Positions 20,820-28,108 of a DNA stretch of 64,000 bases are shown here, one piece after another. Origin of the DNA: Escherichia coli (GTDB lineage Bacteria > Pseudomonadota > Gammaproteobacteria > Enterobacterales > Enterobacteriaceae); the NCBI RefSeq assembly GCF_013122565.1, contig NZ_CP053258.1. The stretch is one strand, 5' to 3'. The first letter of the stretch is position 1. Each line of letters starts with the position of its first letter. Below the pieces are notes generated by a model. The model was not told where the DNA came from. It worked only from the letters and a program-made list of their open reading frames with translations, and ran no database searches. Position numbers and translations under genes: made by a program.

Positions 20820-22240
20820 TGGCAGGGTTAAATAAATATCAGGCGTATCCGGAGTATAGGGATTCTGGGGTGGAGTGGTTGGGGGAGATACCCTCACACT
20901 GGAGCGTTAGCAAGCCCCGTTATATGTTTAATTTCGGCAAAGGGCTTACAATTACCAAAGAGAATCTCCAGGACGACGGGATACCTTGCATTAACTACGG
21001 TGAAATCCATTCAAAATATGGTTTTGAAGTATCCCCCAAAATTCACCCATTGAAATGCGTTGATGAGAAGTATATAAAAGATAATTCAGGCTCATTACTT
21101 TTAAAAGGAGACATTATTTTTGCAGACACATCTGAAGATATTGATGGTTCCGGTAATTTCTCACAACTAATCAGCGATAATATTTCATTCGCTGGTTATC
21201 ATACAATTATTGCCAAACCACTTAATAGAAGAAATTGGCGATTTTATGCTTATCTTCTTGATTGCAAAGAGTTGCGAACCCAAGTTAGACATGCAGTTAA
21301 GGGAGTAAAGGTATTTAGCATTACACAAGCTATTTTACGCGGCCTTTCTATTTGGCTCCCTACGGATGATGAACAGAGTAAAATAGCTGATTTCCTCGAC
21401 CACGAAACTGTAAAAATCGACAACCTAATCAAGAAACAACAACAACTCATTGAACTACTGAAAGAAAAACGTCAGGCAGTGATTAGCCATGCGGTGACCA
21501 AAGGGCTAAATCCTGATGTGCCGATGAAAGATTCTGGGGTTGCGTGGTTGGGGAAAATACCAAAACATTGGGAAATGAGTAAACTACGCTACATGTTTCG
21601 CTTCGGAAAAGGTCTAACAATTACAAAAGAACATCTGCACGATGAGGGGGTTCCATGTGTTAACTATGGCGAAATACATTCTAAATTTGGTTTCGAAATC
21701 GACCCTCAAATTCACAAATTAAAATGTGTTGATGAATCGTACATTCTAAATAACCCCGACTCATTGATCTATAAAGGAGATATTATATTTGCAGATACAT
21801 CTGAAGACATTGACGGCGCTGGTAATTTTACACAATTGATTAGCGATAACCAAATATTTGCCGGTTATCACACTATTATATTACGCCCTCTTAATAGAGA
21901 GTCCTTAAGGTTTTATGCATATATATTTGATAGCAAAGCACTACGGGCACAAATTAGTAATGCAGTGAAAGGCGTGAAAGTATTTAGTATTACTCAAGCC
22001 ATTCTTCGAAGTACATCGATATGGTTTCCACCATTATCAGAACGAGAACGTATTGTTGCATTTCTCGATAACCAAACAATAAAAATCGATACCCTAATTG
22101 AGAAACAACTCCACCAAATAGCTCTCCTAAAAGAACGCCGCACCGCCCTTATCTCCGCTGCCGTCACCGGAAAAATCGACCTACGCAACTGGACCGCCCC
22201 CATCCCCGAAGCGGAAACACCCACGGAGGCCAGCGCATGA
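20819..22240 (+). CDS. hsdS: Type I R-M specificity subunit with two near-identical target-recognition halves
   Basis: 473 aa; aa 16-228 and aa 239-452 are clearly homologous; each half ends in a conserved coiled-coil-like region (LIKKQQQLIELLKEKRQA / LIEKQLHQIALLKERRTA). Confidence 0.85.
   Translation: MAGLNKYQAYPEYRDSGVEWLGEIPSHWSVSKPRYMFNFGKGLTITKENLQDDGIPCINYGEIHSKYGFEVSPKIHPLKCVDEKYIKDNSGSLLLKGDIIFADTSEDIDGSGNFSQLISDNISFAGYHTIIAKPLNRRNWRFYAYLLDCKELRTQVRHAVKGVKVFSITQAILRGLSIWLPTDDEQSKIADFLDHETVKIDNLIKKQQQLIELLKEKRQAVISHAVTKGLNPDVPMKDSGVAWLGKIPKHWEMSKLRYMFRFGKGLTITKEHLHDEGVPCVNYGEIHSKFGFEIDPQIHKLKCVDESYILNNPDSLIYKGDIIFADTSEDIDGAGNFTQLISDNQIFAGYHTIILRPLNRESLRFYAYIFDSKALRAQISNAVKGVKVFSITQAILRSTSIWFPPLSERERIVAFLDNQTIKIDTLIEKQLHQIALLKERRTALISAAVTGKIDLRNWTAPIPEAETPTEASA
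20864..22175 (+). repeat. Internal tandem duplication (about 670-bp unit, 2 copies) within hsdS
   Basis: Direct comparison of the two halves of the translated ORF and underlying DNA (e.g. ggggtggagtggttggggga vs ggggttgcgtggttggggaa). Confidence 0.7.
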
Positions 22241-25200
22241 ACCACGACATTACAAAAGAGGTTAACCTGCAAAACGACATTATCGCGCAGATGGTGGAAA
22301 AAGGCTGGATTGTCGGCAAAGGTGACGGCTACGACCGGGAACGTGCGCTATACGCACAAGACACCTTAAACTTCGTAAAAACCACCCAACCGCAGGAGTG
22401 GGAGAAATTCGCACGCGTTTATCCCAACGACACCGAGCGCCATTTCCTCGACGCGCTGGTCGCGCAGCTTAAAAAAGCCGACAGCAACGCCACTGATATT
22501 CAGTCGCGCACCTGGGGTACGCTCGGCGTACTTCGCCACGGCCTGAAAATTCGCAATGCCCGTTTTTCGCTGTGCCAGTTTAAACCGGAACATAATCTCA
22601 ACCCGGAAACGCTGGCGCGCTATCAGCAGAATATCTGCCGTATTGTGCCGGAACTGGTCTACAGCCCGTATGCCTCAAATAGCGTCTTTGCAGAAACGGG
22701 CGTGAAAGCCAAAAAATGGCGTATCGATCTGGTGCTGTTTATCAACGGCCTGCCGGTTGCCACGCTGGAGCTAAAATCCGAATTTAAACAGGCGGTGCAG
22801 AACGCCATTGCCCAGTACAAAAAGACCCGCCTGCCGAAAGATCCCGCGACCAATAAACCTGAACCGCTGCTGACCTTTAAGCGCGGCGCGCTGGTACATT
22901 TTGCCGTCAGCCAGTATGACGTCTTTATGACCACCAAACTCGCCGGTGACAGCACCTTCTTCCTGCCGTTTAACAAAGGCACCAAAGACGGCGGCGCAGG
23001 CAACGAGATCCCCGAAGATACTCGCCGCTACGCCACAGATTATCTGTGGAATGAAGTGCTGCTGCCGGACAACTTATTAAAAATCCTCGCCAGTTTTGTC
23101 CATTTGCAGATTGAAGAAAAAGAGGACTGGAACGGGCTGAAAGCGAAGAAAGAGAGCCTGATTTTCCCGCGCTATCACCAGTGGGATGTGGTCAATAAAC
23201 TGCTGGAGGCCGCGACGATTGAAGGCACCGGCCACAAATACCTGATTCAGCACAGCGCCGGTTCCGGTAAATCGAACTCCATTGCCTGGACCGCCCACCA
23301 GCTTTCTCGTCTATACGACGTTAACGGGGAAAAACTGTTCCACTCCGTTATCGTGGTGACGGACCGTACGGTGCTGGACGACCAGCTTCAGGACACCATC
23401 TGGCAGTTCGAACATGCCGACGGCGTGGTCGGGCGCATCAATAACAGAGAGGGCGACGGCTCCAAATCGGAAAAGCTCGCCAGCGCGCTGGAAAACTCGC
23501 AGCCGATAATCATCGTCACCATCCAGACATTCCCGTTCGTACTGAAAGCTATCGAAAACAGCATCAGCCTGAAGCAGCGTAAATATGCGGTGATTGCCGA
23601 CGAAGCGCACTCATCGCAGAGCGGTTCCACCGCCCGTCAGCTTAAAGAAGTGCTGATGAGCGAAGAGATGGATGATGACGTGGTGCTGTCGTCAGAAGAT
23701 ATTCTGGATGCGACCATTGCCGCCCGGAAAGGCAGCAGTAACCTGAACTACTACGCCTTTACCGCCACGCCAAAATCCAAAACCCTGGAACTCTTTGGTC
23801 GCTGTCCGCGTCCCGATGAACCGGCCTCAAAAACCAATAAACCTGAGGCCTTCCACGTCTACTCCATGCGCCAGGCAATCGAAGAAGGCTTTATCCTCGA
23901 CGTGCTGAAAAACTACACCAACTACAAAGTGGCGTATCAGTTGCTGCAAAAGCTGGAAGATGAAAACCGCGAAGTCGATAGCAAACGGGCGAAGGTAAAA
24001 CTCAATCAGTGGGTGACGCTGCACGACCACAATATCTCGCAGAAGGTGAAGGTGATTGTGGAGCACTTCCGCAAACATGTGATGCATCTGCTTGGCGGCC
24101 AGGCTAAAGCGATGGTGGTCACCAGTTCACGCAAAGCCGCCGTGCGCTACAAGCTGGCGTTTGATAAATACATTAGCGAGAACAATTACCAGAAAATCAG
24201 CGCGATGGTGGCGTTTTCCGGGGAAGTTGAATTCCGGGAAGGCGACCATAACAGCCTGGCATTGTTAAACCAGAAATTTACTGAAATAAACATGAACCCC
24301 GGCCTGAAAGGGCGGGATATGCGCAAAGCCTTCGACAGCGATGATTATCAGGTCATGCTGGTTGCCAATAAATTCCAGACCGGTTTTGACCAGCCGAAGC
24401 TGTGCGCGATGTACGTGGATAAACCCCTCGGTGGCGTCGAGTGCGTGCAGACACTCTCCCGCCTGAACCGCACCTATCCGGGCAAAGCGGAATCAGGCAC
24501 TTTTGTCCTCGATTTTTATAACGATCCAGACGAGATCCTCGGCGCATTCCAGCCCTATTTCCAGACGGCGGAACTGACCGATGTCAGCGATCCGCAGCAG
24601 GTGTTCGATCTGTTTGAAAAACTGCGCGCCACGCAGATTTTCCAGTGGCATGAAGTCGAGCAGTTCTGCGAGGCATACTTCATCAAAAATAAATCGAATG
24701 CGGCGATCAGTAATATCTGCAAACCGGCGGTCGAACGCTGGAAAAAGCGTTATCTGATGGCGATAGACGCCTATTTGACCGCCAAAGAGATGTTCGAGCG
24801 CACCAAAAAAACGGGCGATACAGTATTAATCACCAATGCGGAAAACAGCTTTAAAGCCTGTAAGCAGGAGAAAGATCGTCTGGAGATTTTCAAGAAAGAT
24901 CTCGGCAGCTTTGTTCGTTTTTATGAATTTATGTCGCAGATCGTTGAATACGATGACAAGGATCTGGAAAAGCTAAGCCTGTTTGCTCGTCATCTGCGTC
25001 CGCTGCTGCATGAGCAACGTCTGGAAGAGGATGAAATTGATCTCAGTAATGTGGAGATGAGTCACTATCGTTTATCGAAAATCCATGAGCAAGATTTACG
25101 CTTACAGGAAGAAACGCCTGACTATACGCTGGATGCAAGTAATAATATTGGTACGGCAAAAGCGAAAGATAAAAAAGAGGAGTTTTTATCGCAGGTGCTT

Positions 25201-25500
25201 TCTCGGATGAATGAATTATTCATTAGCGACCATTTGACCGACAAAGATATGATCAGCAATGCTTTTGCGGTGTATAACAAAATAACTGAAAATGAAAATG
25301 TTATGACACAAATTAAAAACAATCCCCCAGAACAAGCGATTCTTGGTGATTTCCTCCAGGCAGTTGATAATGCTGTAATGGACAGTAATGACGCTCGGCA
25401 AGAATTTATGTTGCAATATTTATCCGATCCAGCTCGGGCAAAGGGCTTTGCTTATCTGATGTTTGATATGCTAACGGGGAAAATTGCTTTACCAACATAA
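22237..25500 (+). CDS. hsdR: Type I restriction enzyme R subunit (endonuclease/helicase)
   Basis: 1087 aa; N-terminal PD-(D/E)xK-like DLVLFINGLPVATLELK; SF2 motifs GSGKS and IADEAHSS (nt 23596-23610); ATGA overlap with hsdS stop. Confidence 0.88.
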   Translation: MNHDITKEVNLQNDIIAQMVEKGWIVGKGDGYDRERALYAQDTLNFVKTTQPQEWEKFARVYPNDTERHFLDALVAQLKKADSNATDIQSRTWGTLGVLRHGLKIRNARFSLCQFKPEHNLNPETLARYQQNICRIVPELVYSPYASNSVFAETGVKAKKWRIDLVLFINGLPVATLELKSEFKQAVQNAIAQYKKTRLPKDPATNKPEPLLTFKRGALVHFAVSQYDVFMTTKLAGDSTFFLPFNKGTKDGGAGNEIPEDTRRYATDYLWNEVLLPDNLLKILASFVHLQIEEKEDWNGLKAKKESLIFPRYHQWDVVNKLLEAATIEGTGHKYLIQHSAGSGKSNSIAWTAHQLSRLYDVNGEKLFHSVIVVTDRTVLDDQLQDTIWQFEHADGVVGRINNREGDGSKSEKLASALENSQPIIIVTIQTFPFVLKAIENSISLKQRKYAVIADEAHSSQSGSTARQLKEVLMSEEMDDDVVLSSEDILDATIAARKGSSNLNYYAFTATPKSKTLELFGRCPRPDEPASKTNKPEAFHVYSMRQAIEEGFILDVLKNYTNYKVAYQLLQKLEDENREVDSKRAKVKLNQWVTLHDHNISQKVKVIVEHFRKHVMHLLGGQAKAMVVTSSRKAAVRYKLAFDKYISENNYQKISAMVAFSGEVEFREGDHNSLALLNQKFTEINMNPGLKGRDMRKAFDSDDYQVMLVANKFQTGFDQPKLCAMYVDKPLGGVECVQTLSRLNRTYPGKAESGTFVLDFYNDPDEILGAFQPYFQTAELTDVSDPQQVFDLFEKLRATQIFQWHEVEQFCEAYFIKNKSNAAISNICKPAVERWKKRYLMAIDAYLTAKEMFERTKKTGDTVLITNAENSFKACKQEKDRLEIFKKDLGSFVRFYEFMSQIVEYDDKDLEKLSLFARHLRPLLHEQRLEEDEIDLSNVEMSHYRLSKIHEQDLRLQEETPDYTLDASNNIGTAKAKDKKEEFLSQVLSRMNELFISDHLTDKDMISNAFAVYNKITENENVMTQIKNNPPEQAILGDFLQAVDNAVMDSNDARQEFMLQYLSDPARAKGFAYLMFDMLTGKIALPT

Positions 25501-25513
25501 AAATACGTTGATA

Positions 25514-25539
25514 GCCGGGGTCGCACTTTCTACCCCGGC
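25514..25539 (+). terminator. Hairpin downstream of hsdR (gccggggt ... accccggc)
   Basis: 8-bp perfect stems, 10-nt loop, followed by an AT-rich tract; weak T-run. Confidence 0.4.
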
Positions 25540-25565
25540 CATATTATTTACAATAAGGAATAGCT

Positions 25566-26279
25566 ATGCTGAAGATGATTAAAGATTTTAAATTCAAAAA
25601 ATACATTAAAAAATTACGTGAAGAAGGTTTGTTATTTTATGTTTCTTTCGGGTTTATATTTACATTGTTAATGGAAGTTGATGATCGATTACCGTACTAT
25701 CTTCAACAAGACTTCTTTTTTGATACACTTATAGGATTTATGCCAATCAATATATTCTTTGTTTTGATTTGCACATATATATTTTTCAATGCCGTCCATG
25801 CGCTTATTTCACCCTATAAATTTCAAAGAATTGGTGAGAAATTCCTCTCTGAACTTGATAAAAGAACACAACAAATTGGCTTTATTATTTCATTCATATG
25901 TTTTGGCATGACTTTGTTTTGTGCACTGGTGTGGTTGCTGTTTTTTGATATGAATACTGAAAGTTACTACGCAAAATATACATTAAATTTTTTAGCTGCT
26001 TTTATCATTATGATTATAATTTCTTCAGTAGTTAATCCAGTAATGAACAGAACATTCCAAAAAATGAAGGAATCGGACTCACATGGAAATTCAAAAATAA
26101 TTCTTATAATTATAATCATTATATTATTACTATTATTACCAATTGCGTGCATTATCAATAAAAATAAAACAATTGAAATCAACATTAAGAAAGAAACTTA
26201 TCAGCAAATAAAAGAAAAAACAAAGATGAAACCTGAAGATTATATCAAAAAATTGATTGCTGATATTAAATTCAACTAA
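25566..26279 (+). CDS. Hypothetical AT-rich membrane protein
   Basis: 237-aa ORF with good Shine-Dalgarno (aagga, 7 nt spacing); several hydrophobic segments including a poly-Ile/Leu stretch; very low GC; not recalled at this position in K-12. Confidence 0.5.
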   Translation: MLKMIKDFKFKKYIKKLREEGLLFYVSFGFIFTLLMEVDDRLPYYLQQDFFFDTLIGFMPINIFFVLICTYIFFNAVHALISPYKFQRIGEKFLSELDKRTQQIGFIISFICFGMTLFCALVWLLFFDMNTESYYAKYTLNFLAAFIIMIIISSVVNPVMNRTFQKMKESDSHGNSKIILIIIIIILLLLLPIACIINKNKTIEINIKKETYQQIKEKTKMKPEDYIKKLIADIKFN

Positions 26280-26283
26280 TATC

Positions 26284-26318
26284 TATATGTACCCTGGTTT
26301 CTTCCAGGGTACATATAA
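26284..26318. repeat. Perfect 14-bp inverted repeat (tatatgtaccctgg / ccagggtacatata) with 7-nt loop
   Basis: Seen in sequence between the AT-rich ORF and yjiS; lies at the distal edge of the variable block. Confidence 0.5.
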
Positions 26319-26354
26319 AAAGTTAATACCCTGATTTATACTCAACATCCCCCC

Positions 26355-26519
26355 TCACTCCACATCCTCCCTGCGTAACCCGATATCCCTCAAGCGCTCA
26401 TCACTCATCTGCTGTAACACCCGTCGGGTCTGCATTTGCCGCCGCCAACGCCTCACCGCCTGCCAGAGTTGCACAAGTCTGATAAACGGCGTTTTGGCTT
26501 TGTTTTCGTGAAATTCCAT
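26355..26519 (-). CDS. yjiS: Small DUF1127 protein YjiS (54 aa)
   Basis: Manual minus-strand translation MEFHENKAKTPFIRLVQLWQAVRRWRRQMQTRRVLQQMSDERLRDIGLRREDVE; below the 60-aa cutoff of the supplied ORF track. Confidence 0.8.
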   Translation of the reverse strand: MEFHENKAKTPFIRLVQLWQAVRRWRRQMQTRRVLQQMSDERLRDIGLRREDVE

Positions 26520-26695
26520 CTGCTGCCTCCTCATCTTTCAGAGGCTTCATCATCCGTCTTCTGGCAGTTCACAATACAGATGCAAATATTAGTTTTATTT
26601 AACATACAGACAGGTTAAAACAGCATCTGCATCCGGTTTTTTAGCCTCATCTGTACCGGTTTTTCTCTCTGTATGGTCCACATAAGGAATACAGC

Positions 26696-28108
26696 ATGAC
26701 GCGTTATCAACATCTGGCGACTCTACTTGCCGAGCGGATTGAGCAGGGGTTGTATCGTCACGGGGAGAAATTGCCGTCGGTGCGCAGCTTAAGTCAGGAG
26801 CACGGCGTCAGCATCAGCACCGTGCAGCAGGCGTATCAGACGCTGGAGACGATGAAGCTCATCACCCCGCAGCCGCGTTCGGGTTATTTTGTCGCACAAC
26901 GGAAAGCCCAGCCGCCTGTACCGCCGATGACGCGTCCGGTGCAGCGCCCGGTGGAAATTACCCAGTGGGATCAGGTACTGGATATGCTGGAGGCGCATAG
27001 CGACAGTTCCATTGTTCCGTTAAGCAAAAGCACGCCGGATGTCGAAATGCCCAGCCTGAAACCGCTCTGGCGGGAGCTAAGCCGGGTGGTACAGCATAAT
27101 CTGCAAACCGTTCTCGGTTATGACTTGCTAGCCGGTCAGCGGGTGTTGCGAGAGCAGATTGCCCGCCTGATGCTCGACAGCGGCTCGGTGGTCACCGCCG
27201 ATGACATCATCATCACCAGCGGCTGCCATAACTCGATGTCGCTGGCGTTAATGGCGGTGTGTAAACCGGGCGATATTGTCGCGGTCGAATCTCCCTGTTA
27301 TTACGGTTCGATGCAGATGCTGCGCGGTATGGGCGTGAAAGTGATTGAAATCCCAACCGATCCAGAAACAGGCATCAGCGTTGAAGCGCTGGAACTGGCG
27401 CTGGAACAGTGGCCGATTAAAGGCATCATTCTGGTACCAAACTGTAATAATCCGCTGGGATTTATTATGCCGGACGCGCGCAAACGGGCCGTTCTCTCTC
27501 TCGCTCAGCGTCATGATATTGTGATTTTTGAAGATGATGTCTACGGCGAACTGGCAACGGAGTATCCGCGCCCGCGGACCATTCATTCATGGGATATCGA
27601 CGGGCGAGTGCTGTTGTGCAGCTCGTTCAGTAAAAGTATTGCTCCAGGCCTGCGCGTGGGTTGGGTCGCACCGGGACGTTATCACGATAAACTGATGCAT
27701 ATGAAATACGCCATCAGCAGCTTTAATGTATTGTCCACGCAAATGGCGGCGGCAACGTTTGTGCTGGAAGGTCACTATCATCGCCATATCCGGCGGATGC
27801 GGCAGATCTATCAGCGCAATTTGGCGCTTTATACCAGCTGGATACGGGAATATTTTCCCTGCGAAATCTGTATTACGCGCCCGAAAGGCGGATTTTTACT
27901 GTGGATAGAATTGCCTGAACAGGTCGATATGGTCTGCGTCGCGCGGCAGCTGTGCCGCATGAAAATCCAGGTGGCGGCAGGCTCGATTTTCTCGGCTTCC
28001 GGTAAATACCGTAATTGTCTGCGTATCAACTGCGCTTTGCCGCTCAGCGAAACCTATCGCGAAGCACTGAAGCAAATTGGCGAGGCCGTGTATCGGGCAA
28101 TAGAATGA
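26696..28108 (+). CDS. yjiR: MocR/GntR-family PLP-dependent transcriptional regulator
   Basis: 470 aa; N-terminal GntR HTH, C-terminal aminotransferase-like domain; recognised as YjiR. Confidence 0.9.
   Translation: MTRYQHLATLLAERIEQGLYRHGEKLPSVRSLSQEHGVSISTVQQAYQTLETMKLITPQPRSGYFVAQRKAQPPVPPMTRPVQRPVEITQWDQVLDMLEAHSDSSIVPLSKSTPDVEMPSLKPLWRELSRVVQHNLQTVLGYDLLAGQRVLREQIARLMLDSGSVVTADDIIITSGCHNSMSLALMAVCKPGDIVAVESPCYYGSMQMLRGMGVKVIEIPTDPETGISVEALELALEQWPIKGIILVPNCNNPLGFIMPDARKRAVLSLAQRHDIVIFEDDVYGELATEYPRPRTIHSWDIDGRVLLCSSFSKSIAPGLRVGWVAPGRYHDKLMHMKYAISSFNVLSTQMAAATFVLEGHYHRHIRRMRQIYQRNLALYTSWIREYFPCEICITRPKGGFLLWIELPEQVDMVCVARQLCRMKIQVAAGSIFSASGKYRNCLRINCALPLSETYREALKQIGEAVYRAIE

Follow-up and report, generated by a model that had tools for sequence, protein, structure and literature searches.

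The immigration control region (ICR) is the classic defence island of enterobacteria, and its content is described as restriction enzymes and toxin-antitoxin pairs. This report concerns an open reading frame (ORF) at one border of that island, at positions 25566-26279 of a 64,000-nt stretch of Escherichia coli DNA (NCBI RefSeq assembly GCF_013122565.1, contig NZ_CP053258.1; this whole stretch is referred to as the window). Described proteins resemble its product in one respect or another. Ribbon-helix-helix (RHH) modules of the Arc/MetJ/CopG kind act as beta-ribbon dimers which bind DNA or, in antitoxins, a partner protein. ToxR, TcpP and CadC have an N-terminal winged-helix domain, one transmembrane helix and a periplasmic sensor domain. 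RexB, SieB and the Abi/CAAX proteins are, like the ORF product, small polytopic membrane proteins of defence islands. STM4522 of Salmonella Typhimurium LT2 is homologous to the ORF product over its full length (233 aa, 37% identity, 29% GC), but neither it nor its homologues are mentioned in any paper in the literature searched, and no curated family covers the gene.

The ORF is a genuine gene, and purifying selection acts on it. In at least four enteric genera it recurs, unannotated, at one border of the ICR, and selection persists even where the restriction genes are gone. It very probably encodes a membrane protein which is independent of restriction-modification (R-M). The full explanation favoured here, that of a selected inner-membrane protein with an RHH tail and without ties to the restriction enzyme, is given a probability of roughly 0.4. 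The ORF and its immediate surroundings comprise the following features:

25555..25559, + strand: Shine-Dalgarno-like AAGGA, 6 nt 5' of the ATG, identified from the sequence.
25566..26279, + strand: the ORF, 237 codons with an ATG start, STM4522-like family; a membrane domain followed by a charged C-terminal tail.
22237..25500, + strand: hsdR, last gene of the hsdM-hsdS-hsdR type I operon at 18465-25500 (Pfam, NCBIfam).
26344..26355, no strand: point where the variable cassette meets the core chromosome, at the stop codon of yjiS.
26355..26519, - strand: yjiS (DUF1127; PF06568, E 2e-13), core boundary gene, convergent with the ORF.

The ORF starts 65 nt after the hsdR stop codon at 25500. Its GC content is 26.3% (26.9% at third codon positions, GC3), against 50.0% in hsdR (GC3 61%), 52% in hsdM and 49% in the whole window. 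At the composition of the ORF a stop codon has a probability of 0.086 per codon, or about one stop per 12 codons. The probability of 237 stop-free codons is then about 6e-10, and the longest stop-free run in 5000 shuffles was 153 codons. By composition and length it is thus not a chance ORF. The AAGGA is unchanged across 11 Escherichia alleles; the Salmonella alleles shown have GAAGGGAAACC or GAAGGAAAA at this position. A single coding sequence is annotated across the region in 59 of 60 carriers, a sample spread over the 114 E. coli genomes which carry the gene.

Selection on the ORF is visible in three lineages. Among E. coli alleles the DNA sequence diverges by up to 7%, with 28, 19 and 53 variable sites at codon positions 1, 2 and 3, and the ratio of nonsynonymous to synonymous substitution rates (dN/dS) is 0.17-0.32 (Fisher p 1e-7 to 5e-4). 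Two Salmonella alleles of the homologue give 0.28 (p 8e-6). Two members of a third enteric lineage, known from metagenomic contigs (L010/L018), give 0.12 with saturated synonymous sites (p 2e-27). Constraint on hsdR is stronger (0.05-0.11), but selection on the ORF is still clearly purifying.

The same alleles bear on whether the gene is a functionless hitch-hiker, a decaying remnant silenced by H-NS and kept by the recombination flank of the cassette. Such a remnant would be expected to resemble this gene in its relaxed selection relative to hsdR (dN/dS 0.2-0.4 against 0.05-0.1), its extreme AT content and its frameshifted alleles, which occur in E. coli (a few, in homopolymer runs), in Salmonella and in S. 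enterica subsp. diarizonae. These alleles indicate that the gene is dispensable, which counts against the favoured explanation. However, dN/dS is significantly below 1 in all three lineages, the single coding sequence is kept in about 98% of the E. coli carriers sampled, and relatives which are only 14-40% identical keep the reading frame, the length and the motifs. A functionless passenger is therefore very doubtful. The earlier note on this DNA had offered an island-junction remnant as one reading of the ORF; it does mark a junction, but the gene is intact and under purifying selection, and so is no remnant.

Split or unannotated alleles were seen in E. coli KE50, A20 (NZ_CP028755.1) and Q5 (NZ_CP127255.1). 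In KE50 (L009 4087-4799) the loss of 1 nt breaks the frame just past '...WLLF', at about aa 126. Such alleles could represent real decay or sequencing errors in homopolymers. Truncated Escherichia entries are also on record (P0005, P0006 and P0008). Four further entries (P0018, P0024-P0026) were considered as a separate lineage and rejected, as they are frameshifted Salmonella alleles.

In all lineages the ORF and its homologues are AT-rich, with a GC content of 26-32% and GC3 of 23-36%, compared with a GC3 of 56-63% in adjoining genes. Synonymous sites are saturated within one lineage, which indicates that the composition has not shifted toward that of the host. Either AT-richness would then be preserved, by low expression or H-NS binding for instance, or the alleles would travel with their cassettes.

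Of 5426 complete E. coli genomes, 114 have the gene, and every match spans the hsdR 3' end, the ORF and the cassette edge. Exactly 114 E. coli genomes have this hsdR 3' end, and the arrangement is always hsdR-ORF-yjiS. It is the same in E. fergusonii. Sensitive and distant blastn searches with the E. coli, Salmonella and L018 alleles found no diverged copies in any complete E. coli genome. In 3739 E. coli genomes which have yjiS but lack the cassette, homology to the window begins only at 26344-26355; only the 114 carriers match across this boundary. Since homology resumes only there, the ORF and a 14-bp hairpin which follows it are the last elements of the variable cassette. The position at the distal edge of the island, as claimed in the earlier note, is thus borne out, as are the AT-richness and the hydrophobic, membrane-protein character which that note had read from the sequence.

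Identity between the window and Salmonella falls from 90% for YjiN and 87% for MdtM to 54% for YjiS and 37% for the ORF product, so that divergence climbs steeply toward the island. The value for yjiS was obtained against Salmonella L012 14741-14905, and is 54% even though YjiN and MdtM, a few kb off, are typical orthologues.

Outside Escherichia the gene keeps to the same border but has other neighbours. In a tblastn search of Salmonella, 93% of the query was covered at 37.7% identity (E 8e-27). STM4522 adjoins yjiS in the order symE-ORF-yjiS, beside a type IA-like hsdR-hsdM-hsdS operon and mrr. In Pseudocitrobacter faecalis the order is mrr-hsdRMS-symE-ORF, and the ORF is convergent with an aldehyde dehydrogenase gene (symE-ORF-Aldedh), the one found beyond yjiS in Salmonella. 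In the two metagenomic contigs of the L010/L018 lineage, which are 64% identical, the ORF is convergent with the same dehydrogenase gene. Upstream of the ORF in L018, the one contig of this lineage which extends far enough, there is only a 49-residue stump of the mrr 3' end (80% identity to Mrr of Salmonella, E 1e-26). The type strain of S. enterica subsp. diarizonae, CCUG 30040T (L017 7698-10692), has AraC-LysE-symE-ORF-yjiS with a frameshifted ORF and no hsd genes. Another locus, L014, was considered as a case of the gene without R-M genes and was rejected, as the gap there is a run of Ns.

The ORF therefore tracks the yjiS/aldehyde dehydrogenase edge of the ICR in enterics, and not any restriction system. 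STM4522 is like the window protein in its five hydrophobic segments, tail motif, AT-richness (29% GC) and location next to yjiS at the ICR edge. It differs in its surroundings, as it follows symE beside a type IA-like hsdRMS operon and mrr, and not an M-S-R operon with a GmrSD gene. The earlier note had described the ORF as an orphan immediately downstream of hsdR. The first part does not hold, since the ORF belongs to a gammaproteobacterial family which includes STM4522. The second is true of the window but incidental, as symE, an mrr stump or no hsd genes at all are found in other lineages. Syntenic homologues, the absence of which that note had named among the grounds for refuting its view, were found.

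These arrangements also bear on the adjoining restriction genes. One possibility is that the ORF encodes an accessory or regulator of this type I cassette, acting for example in restriction alleviation or hsdR expression and co-transcribed by read-through from hsdR. The one-to-one link with this hsdR in E. coli (114 of 114) would fit such a functional tie, and to that extent speaks against independence; the ORF is also on the same strand, 65 nt downstream, and has no convincing promoter of its own. However, obligate co-occurrence with one hsd family breaks down outside E. coli, in Salmonella and Pseudocitrobacter as well as in L018 and S. diarizonae. A gene which lies beside different type I systems or none, and is still selected where no hsd genes are visible, is not expected to be a type I subunit or accessory. 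A hairpin separates hsdR from the ORF, and the two genes are sharply unlike in GC content and dN/dS. It is thus very unlikely that the ORF product belongs to the type I enzyme as a subunit or assists it as an accessory, and a regulatory role within this particular cassette is scarcely credible. hsdR is the upstream neighbour of the ORF, not its functional partner.

The other neighbour, YjiS, is reported to be a peripheral protein of the inner membrane, on its cytoplasmic side, where integral-membrane partners hold it (PMC11707872). The ORF product might be such a partner, an anchor or docking site for YjiS. The genes are adjacent and convergent and have a hairpin in common in Escherichia and in Salmonella; that source reports that high salt frees YjiS from membranes and that YjiS co-purifies with inner-membrane proteins (PMC11707872). 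However, the ORF product is not among the YjiS interactors given in the sections of that source which were covered (PMC11707872). Moreover, 3739 E. coli genomes have yjiS and only 114 have the ORF, and the ORF occurs without yjiS in Pseudocitrobacter and in the L010/L018 lineage. A role as YjiS anchor is therefore quite improbable.

The product is rich in isoleucine (15.6%), leucine (11%), phenylalanine (11%) and lysine (10.5%), with a lysine-rich N-terminus and a charged tail of 40 residues. Two parts can be distinguished:

25629..26156, + strand: five conserved hydrophobic helices and their loops, at aa 22-38, 53-79, 104-127, 138-158 and 177-197, from hydropathy.
26157..26276, + strand: C-terminal tail, aa 198-237, strand-helix-helix, a probable diverged RHH module.

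The same five hydrophobic segments are present in 15 of 15 aligned family members; the last, aa 177-197, is a run of isoleucine and leucine. AlphaFold2 (AF2) places helices at 10-38, 44-81, 88-125, 134-169 and 174-197 with low confidence. In a five-span model the numbers of lysine and arginine residues are nearly equal on the two sides of the membrane. Four-span models with a cytoplasmic tail have a strong positive-inside bias in all 15 members (24 against 5 in the window protein). Probably, then, four of the five helices span the membrane and the tail faces the cytoplasm, an arrangement with which the lysine and arginine bias agrees without proving it.

In deposited annotations the gene is called 'hypothetical protein' or 'inner membrane protein', and in a few RefSeq genomes (NZ_AP046539.1, NZ_AP046542.1 and NZ_CM183654.1) 'MFS transporter'. 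This last label, an occasional one from PGAP, is unfounded; Pfam lends no support to an MFS assignment. In a phmmer search of PDB sequences, only transmembrane stretches of AcrB/MexB were matched, at E >= 0.004, and these matches were set aside as compositional.

The tail is the least variable region of the protein within E. coli (2 of 40 positions variable) and the part which AF2 predicts best, with pLDDT 80-84 against 57 overall. It consists of an extended stretch (198-208) and two helices (209-219 and 223-232), following a pattern of alternating hydrophobic strand, helix, K-P-E turn and helix. The AF2 model is monomeric, and an RHH strand can form only in a dimer. A profile built from 12 family tails was compared with solved structures and found HP0222 (1x93, E 3.4e-7) and HP0564 (2k1o, E 0.001), followed by ParG and AvtR. 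HP0222 and HP0564 of Helicobacter pylori are RHH folds of the Arc/MetJ family (PMC6269979). Three remote family members also have sub-threshold Pfam matches to RHH-type families, exactly on the tail (NikA-like, E 0.0019, with RHH_7, 0.041, and RHH_1, 0.13; TacA1, 0.012; DUF6290, 0.016). The last 35-40 residues of the family align in register with the strand, helix A and helix B of HP0222, HP0564 and ParG. Differences from these proteins should be noted. Known RHH proteins are small soluble dimers, or the module is N-terminal in a soluble protein; here it would follow a polytopic membrane domain as the C-terminal part. The tails of the enteric proteins are also very lysine-rich, have K-P-E in place of the usual G-x-S/T turn, and are not significant alone.

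At the level of the family, the RHH assignment is well supported by these profile comparisons. For the window protein itself it is somewhat favoured, by way of transitive homology and the in-register alignment. A number of results weigh against it and against the topology proposed above. It is chiefly the remote members which carry the RHH signal: with enteric tails only, neither hmmsearch nor phmmer detected HP0222, hhalign of the enteric tails to a hand-made RHH alignment gave a probability of 4.8%, and Pfam found nothing on the window tail alone. The AF2 models are of low confidence, with pLDDT 48.7 when 6 sequences were used and 56.9 (pTM 0.41) with 12, and a Foldseek search of the model against the PDB found nothing below E = 4. 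Finally, in E. coli each of the five segments seems capable of crossing the membrane, and with five crossings the tail would end up in the periplasm, where it could not bind DNA.

The explanation favoured here combines these parts. The product would be a dimeric, membrane-anchored RHH protein of the inner membrane, a model which follows from the way RHH domains work, as beta-ribbon dimers bound to DNA or to a partner. It would act in the manner of a one-component regulator or autoregulator, or as a tether for DNA at the membrane. That it is a membrane-anchored DNA-binding regulator is a tentative proposal, in which both dimerisation and DNA binding are deduced from the likeness of the tail to RHH domains. 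The working principle, though nothing else, would resemble that of ToxR, TcpP and CadC, whose transmembrane helices keep a DNA-binding module on the cytoplasmic side of the inner membrane. The window protein is not a member of that group. No sequence similarity to these proteins was found, and the window protein differs from them in its four or five helices, its lack of a periplasmic domain and the C-terminal place of its RHH-like module.

A polytopic membrane domain joined to a C-terminal RHH module would be an undescribed architecture, as far as the searched libraries show. If the tail is a working RHH module, the protein is a candidate for a regulator at the membrane or for a component which handles DNA there. 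A bolder version is rather unlikely. It would make the family a new class of membrane-anchored RHH proteins of defence islands, with a dimer which binds DNA at the cytoplasmic face and either tethers or senses incoming DNA as a form of exclusion or defence, or switches symE, hsd or yjiS when a signal arrives from the envelope. The retention of the gene at the ICR border, whatever cassette lies inside, would then be accounted for. If the tail is not such a module, the lesson for annotation is that a 'hypothetical protein' beside hsdR is not to be read as part of a type I system or as an abortive infection (Abi) effector.

The family is small and reaches beyond enterics. An exhaustive HMMER search of 1.84e9 representative proteins gave 18 matches (E 7e-67 to 6e-4). 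Family members match over their full length (222-259 aa), and the set is made up of enteric lineages, fragments and remote relatives. Full-length remote relatives come from Enterobacter wuhouensis, E. bugandensis, Vibrio parahaemolyticus, Alishewanella, Rheinheimera and several metagenomes. The Pseudocitrobacter protein bridges the groups, as it is found by the E. coli profile (E 8e-32) and has the motif Q-x-C-S-P-A-F-F in common with the Vibrio protein. The STM4522-like proteins are thus a small uncharacterised gammaproteobacterial family, as judged from their sequences. It should be noted that the remote members are hydrophobic proteins, assigned to the family at E-values between 4e-7 and 6e-4, a further point against an argument which draws on the remote tails.

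An alternative is a function in defence. The product would then be an Abi or superinfection-exclusion effector which, on a phage cue, permeabilises or depolarises the inner membrane or keeps DNA from entering. Its RHH-like tail might serve for autoinhibition or autoregulation, as a module of antitoxin type fused to a membrane toxin. The gene always lies in variable, defence-rich DNA, which in four enteric genera is the ICR. It is AT-rich, patchy and often lost, like accessory genes, and RHH modules are typical of antitoxins, with TacA1 among the weak tail matches. The relative in V. parahaemolyticus (L020, L021 1-12400) is in an island with VspR, a pair formed by an ImmA/IrrE-type peptidase and a helix-turn-helix protein, and a Multi_ubiq / DUF6791-ThiF / BubE operon; immediately upstream of the relative, an ORF of 176 aa has a weak match to HEPN_AbiU2 (E 7e-4, under the cut-off). 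In Alishewanella sp. BS5-314 (L022 5142-8696), and also in L023, the relative is the last gene of a tight co-directional cluster of four (395, 277, 277 and 231 aa), flanked by Mrr_cat/Zn-ribbon and HNH genes. None of the four cluster proteins has a match in Pfam or PADLOC. The four genes may together form a complete system, with the enteric gene as a lone member of it.

Against a defence module stand the database searches and the variety of neighbourhoods. PADLOC gave no family at E<=1 for the window protein and none at E<=0.1 for the relatives P0030, P0033 and P0060. PHROGs gave no match for the window protein or the rest of the family. For the window protein, Pfam and NCBIfam gave only sub-threshold matches to its hydrophobic segments, driven by composition, and no relative has a Pfam match above the cut-off. 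The ORF has no match among 72,556 plasmids and none in a real phage record; the only match in the phage collection was to a misfiled 501-kb contig of a Salmonella chromosome, a tblastn match which led to STM4522. A total of 18 matches among 1.84e9 representative proteins is unlike what mobile defence genes show. Depending on the locus, the gene upstream is hsdR, symE, an mrr stump, one for GFA, or one for an unknown protein of 277 aa or 176 aa, and no partner or sensor gene is conserved across homologous loci. Two other relatives lie in ordinary metabolic neighbourhoods. One relative (P0030) has a weak match to SieB on a hydrophobic stretch (E 0.001, under the cut-off). By inspection of the STM4522-like alignment, conservation does not extend to EExxxR, FxxxH and HxxxN, which are motifs of CAAX/Abi proteins. 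A defence effector is thus doubtful, if worth keeping in mind. The suggestion of the earlier note that the ORF might be an abortive-infection effector finds no direct support: the libraries give nothing, there is no conserved partner, and the tail is RHH-like and not that of a pore former. Its sole argument is the context of a defence island.

Two hairpins flank the ORF:

25514..25539, + strand: hairpin GCCGGGGT-N10-ACCCCGGC, followed by T-rich CATATTATTT, between the hsdR stop codon and the ORF.
26284..26317, no strand: perfect 14-bp inverted repeat with a 6-nt loop, arms 26284-26297 and 26304-26317.

The first hairpin (-16.8 kcal/mol, z -2.2) is kept in E. coli alleles and degraded in E. fergusonii. 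From its sequence it is likely to be a terminator of hsdR, perhaps a leaky one. A scan for sigma-70 promoters directly upstream of the ORF found none that was convincing, and fewer promoter-like sites than in shuffled sequence. Expression of the ORF may come from read-through or from a weak AT-rich promoter.

The second hairpin is the perfect inverted repeat which the earlier note had reported beyond the ORF, and it is present exactly as described. The RNA folds with -23.4 kcal/mol on the + strand and -24.6 kcal/mol on the - strand (z about -6), and none of 200 shuffles was as stable. The stem has 6 G-C pairs and is flagged as terminator-like on the - strand. It is followed by AAAAAG on the + strand and by moderately U-rich GAUAUUAGUU on the - strand; neither strand has a clean U-tract. 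The repeat is found in all Escherichia alleles, in some with uncompensated mismatches. Other lineages have an unrelated hairpin of their own at this spot, such as CCAGATGGC...GCCATCTGG, and that of Salmonella is AAGGGCATAGTA...TACTATTGCCCTT. Most simply, it is a transcript-end or stabilising hairpin common to the convergent ORF and yjiS. The end of a mobile element or an att site was considered for the repeat and rejected, as there is no copy at the other end of the island: the arm sequence is found nowhere else in the 64-kb window (at up to 2 mismatches), and there is no matching repeat in 13000-27000. An Rfam scan of the whole window gave no match.

The island itself has the content of the closest complete E. 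coli genome, in which the order is yjiA, BrnA/BrnT, Fic, a GmrSD-type enzyme, hsdM, hsdS, hsdR, 'hypothetical protein', yjiS, yjiR, rpn, mdtM and yjiN. Between yjiA and the GmrSD gene the window has ORFs on the - strand (14581-16046) at the positions annotated as BrnA/BrnT and Fic-family genes in that genome (L001). The hsd operon is not IA-like and is only distantly IC-like, with distant similarity of its HsdR to that of EcoR124I. In the ICR only type I systems of classes IA, IB and ID are reported, and ID and GmrSD both occur at 12% (PMC12707154). Because these two ICR frequencies are equal (PMC12707154), the operon is probably of type ID.

The GmrSD-type enzyme is a type IV enzyme of 699 aa (16090-18189, - strand), which has GmrSD_N and GmrSD_C domains and an extra C-terminal DUF5655. 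Its gene is divergent from hsdM, and the same pairing is found in E. fergusonii (L011). hsdS contains an internal direct duplication (20861-21160 and 21530-21829; 300 nt, 74% identity, spacing 669 nt), so the two target-recognition halves are closely related, which suggests a symmetric or near-symmetric recognition sequence. At 40% GC, hsdS is also AT-rich and lies below hsdM and hsdR. A second sharp AT-rich trough occurs about 8 kb downstream, at 34600-35000 (GC about 35%), near the start of a gene which is annotated as a pentapeptide-repeat protein in the closest genome.

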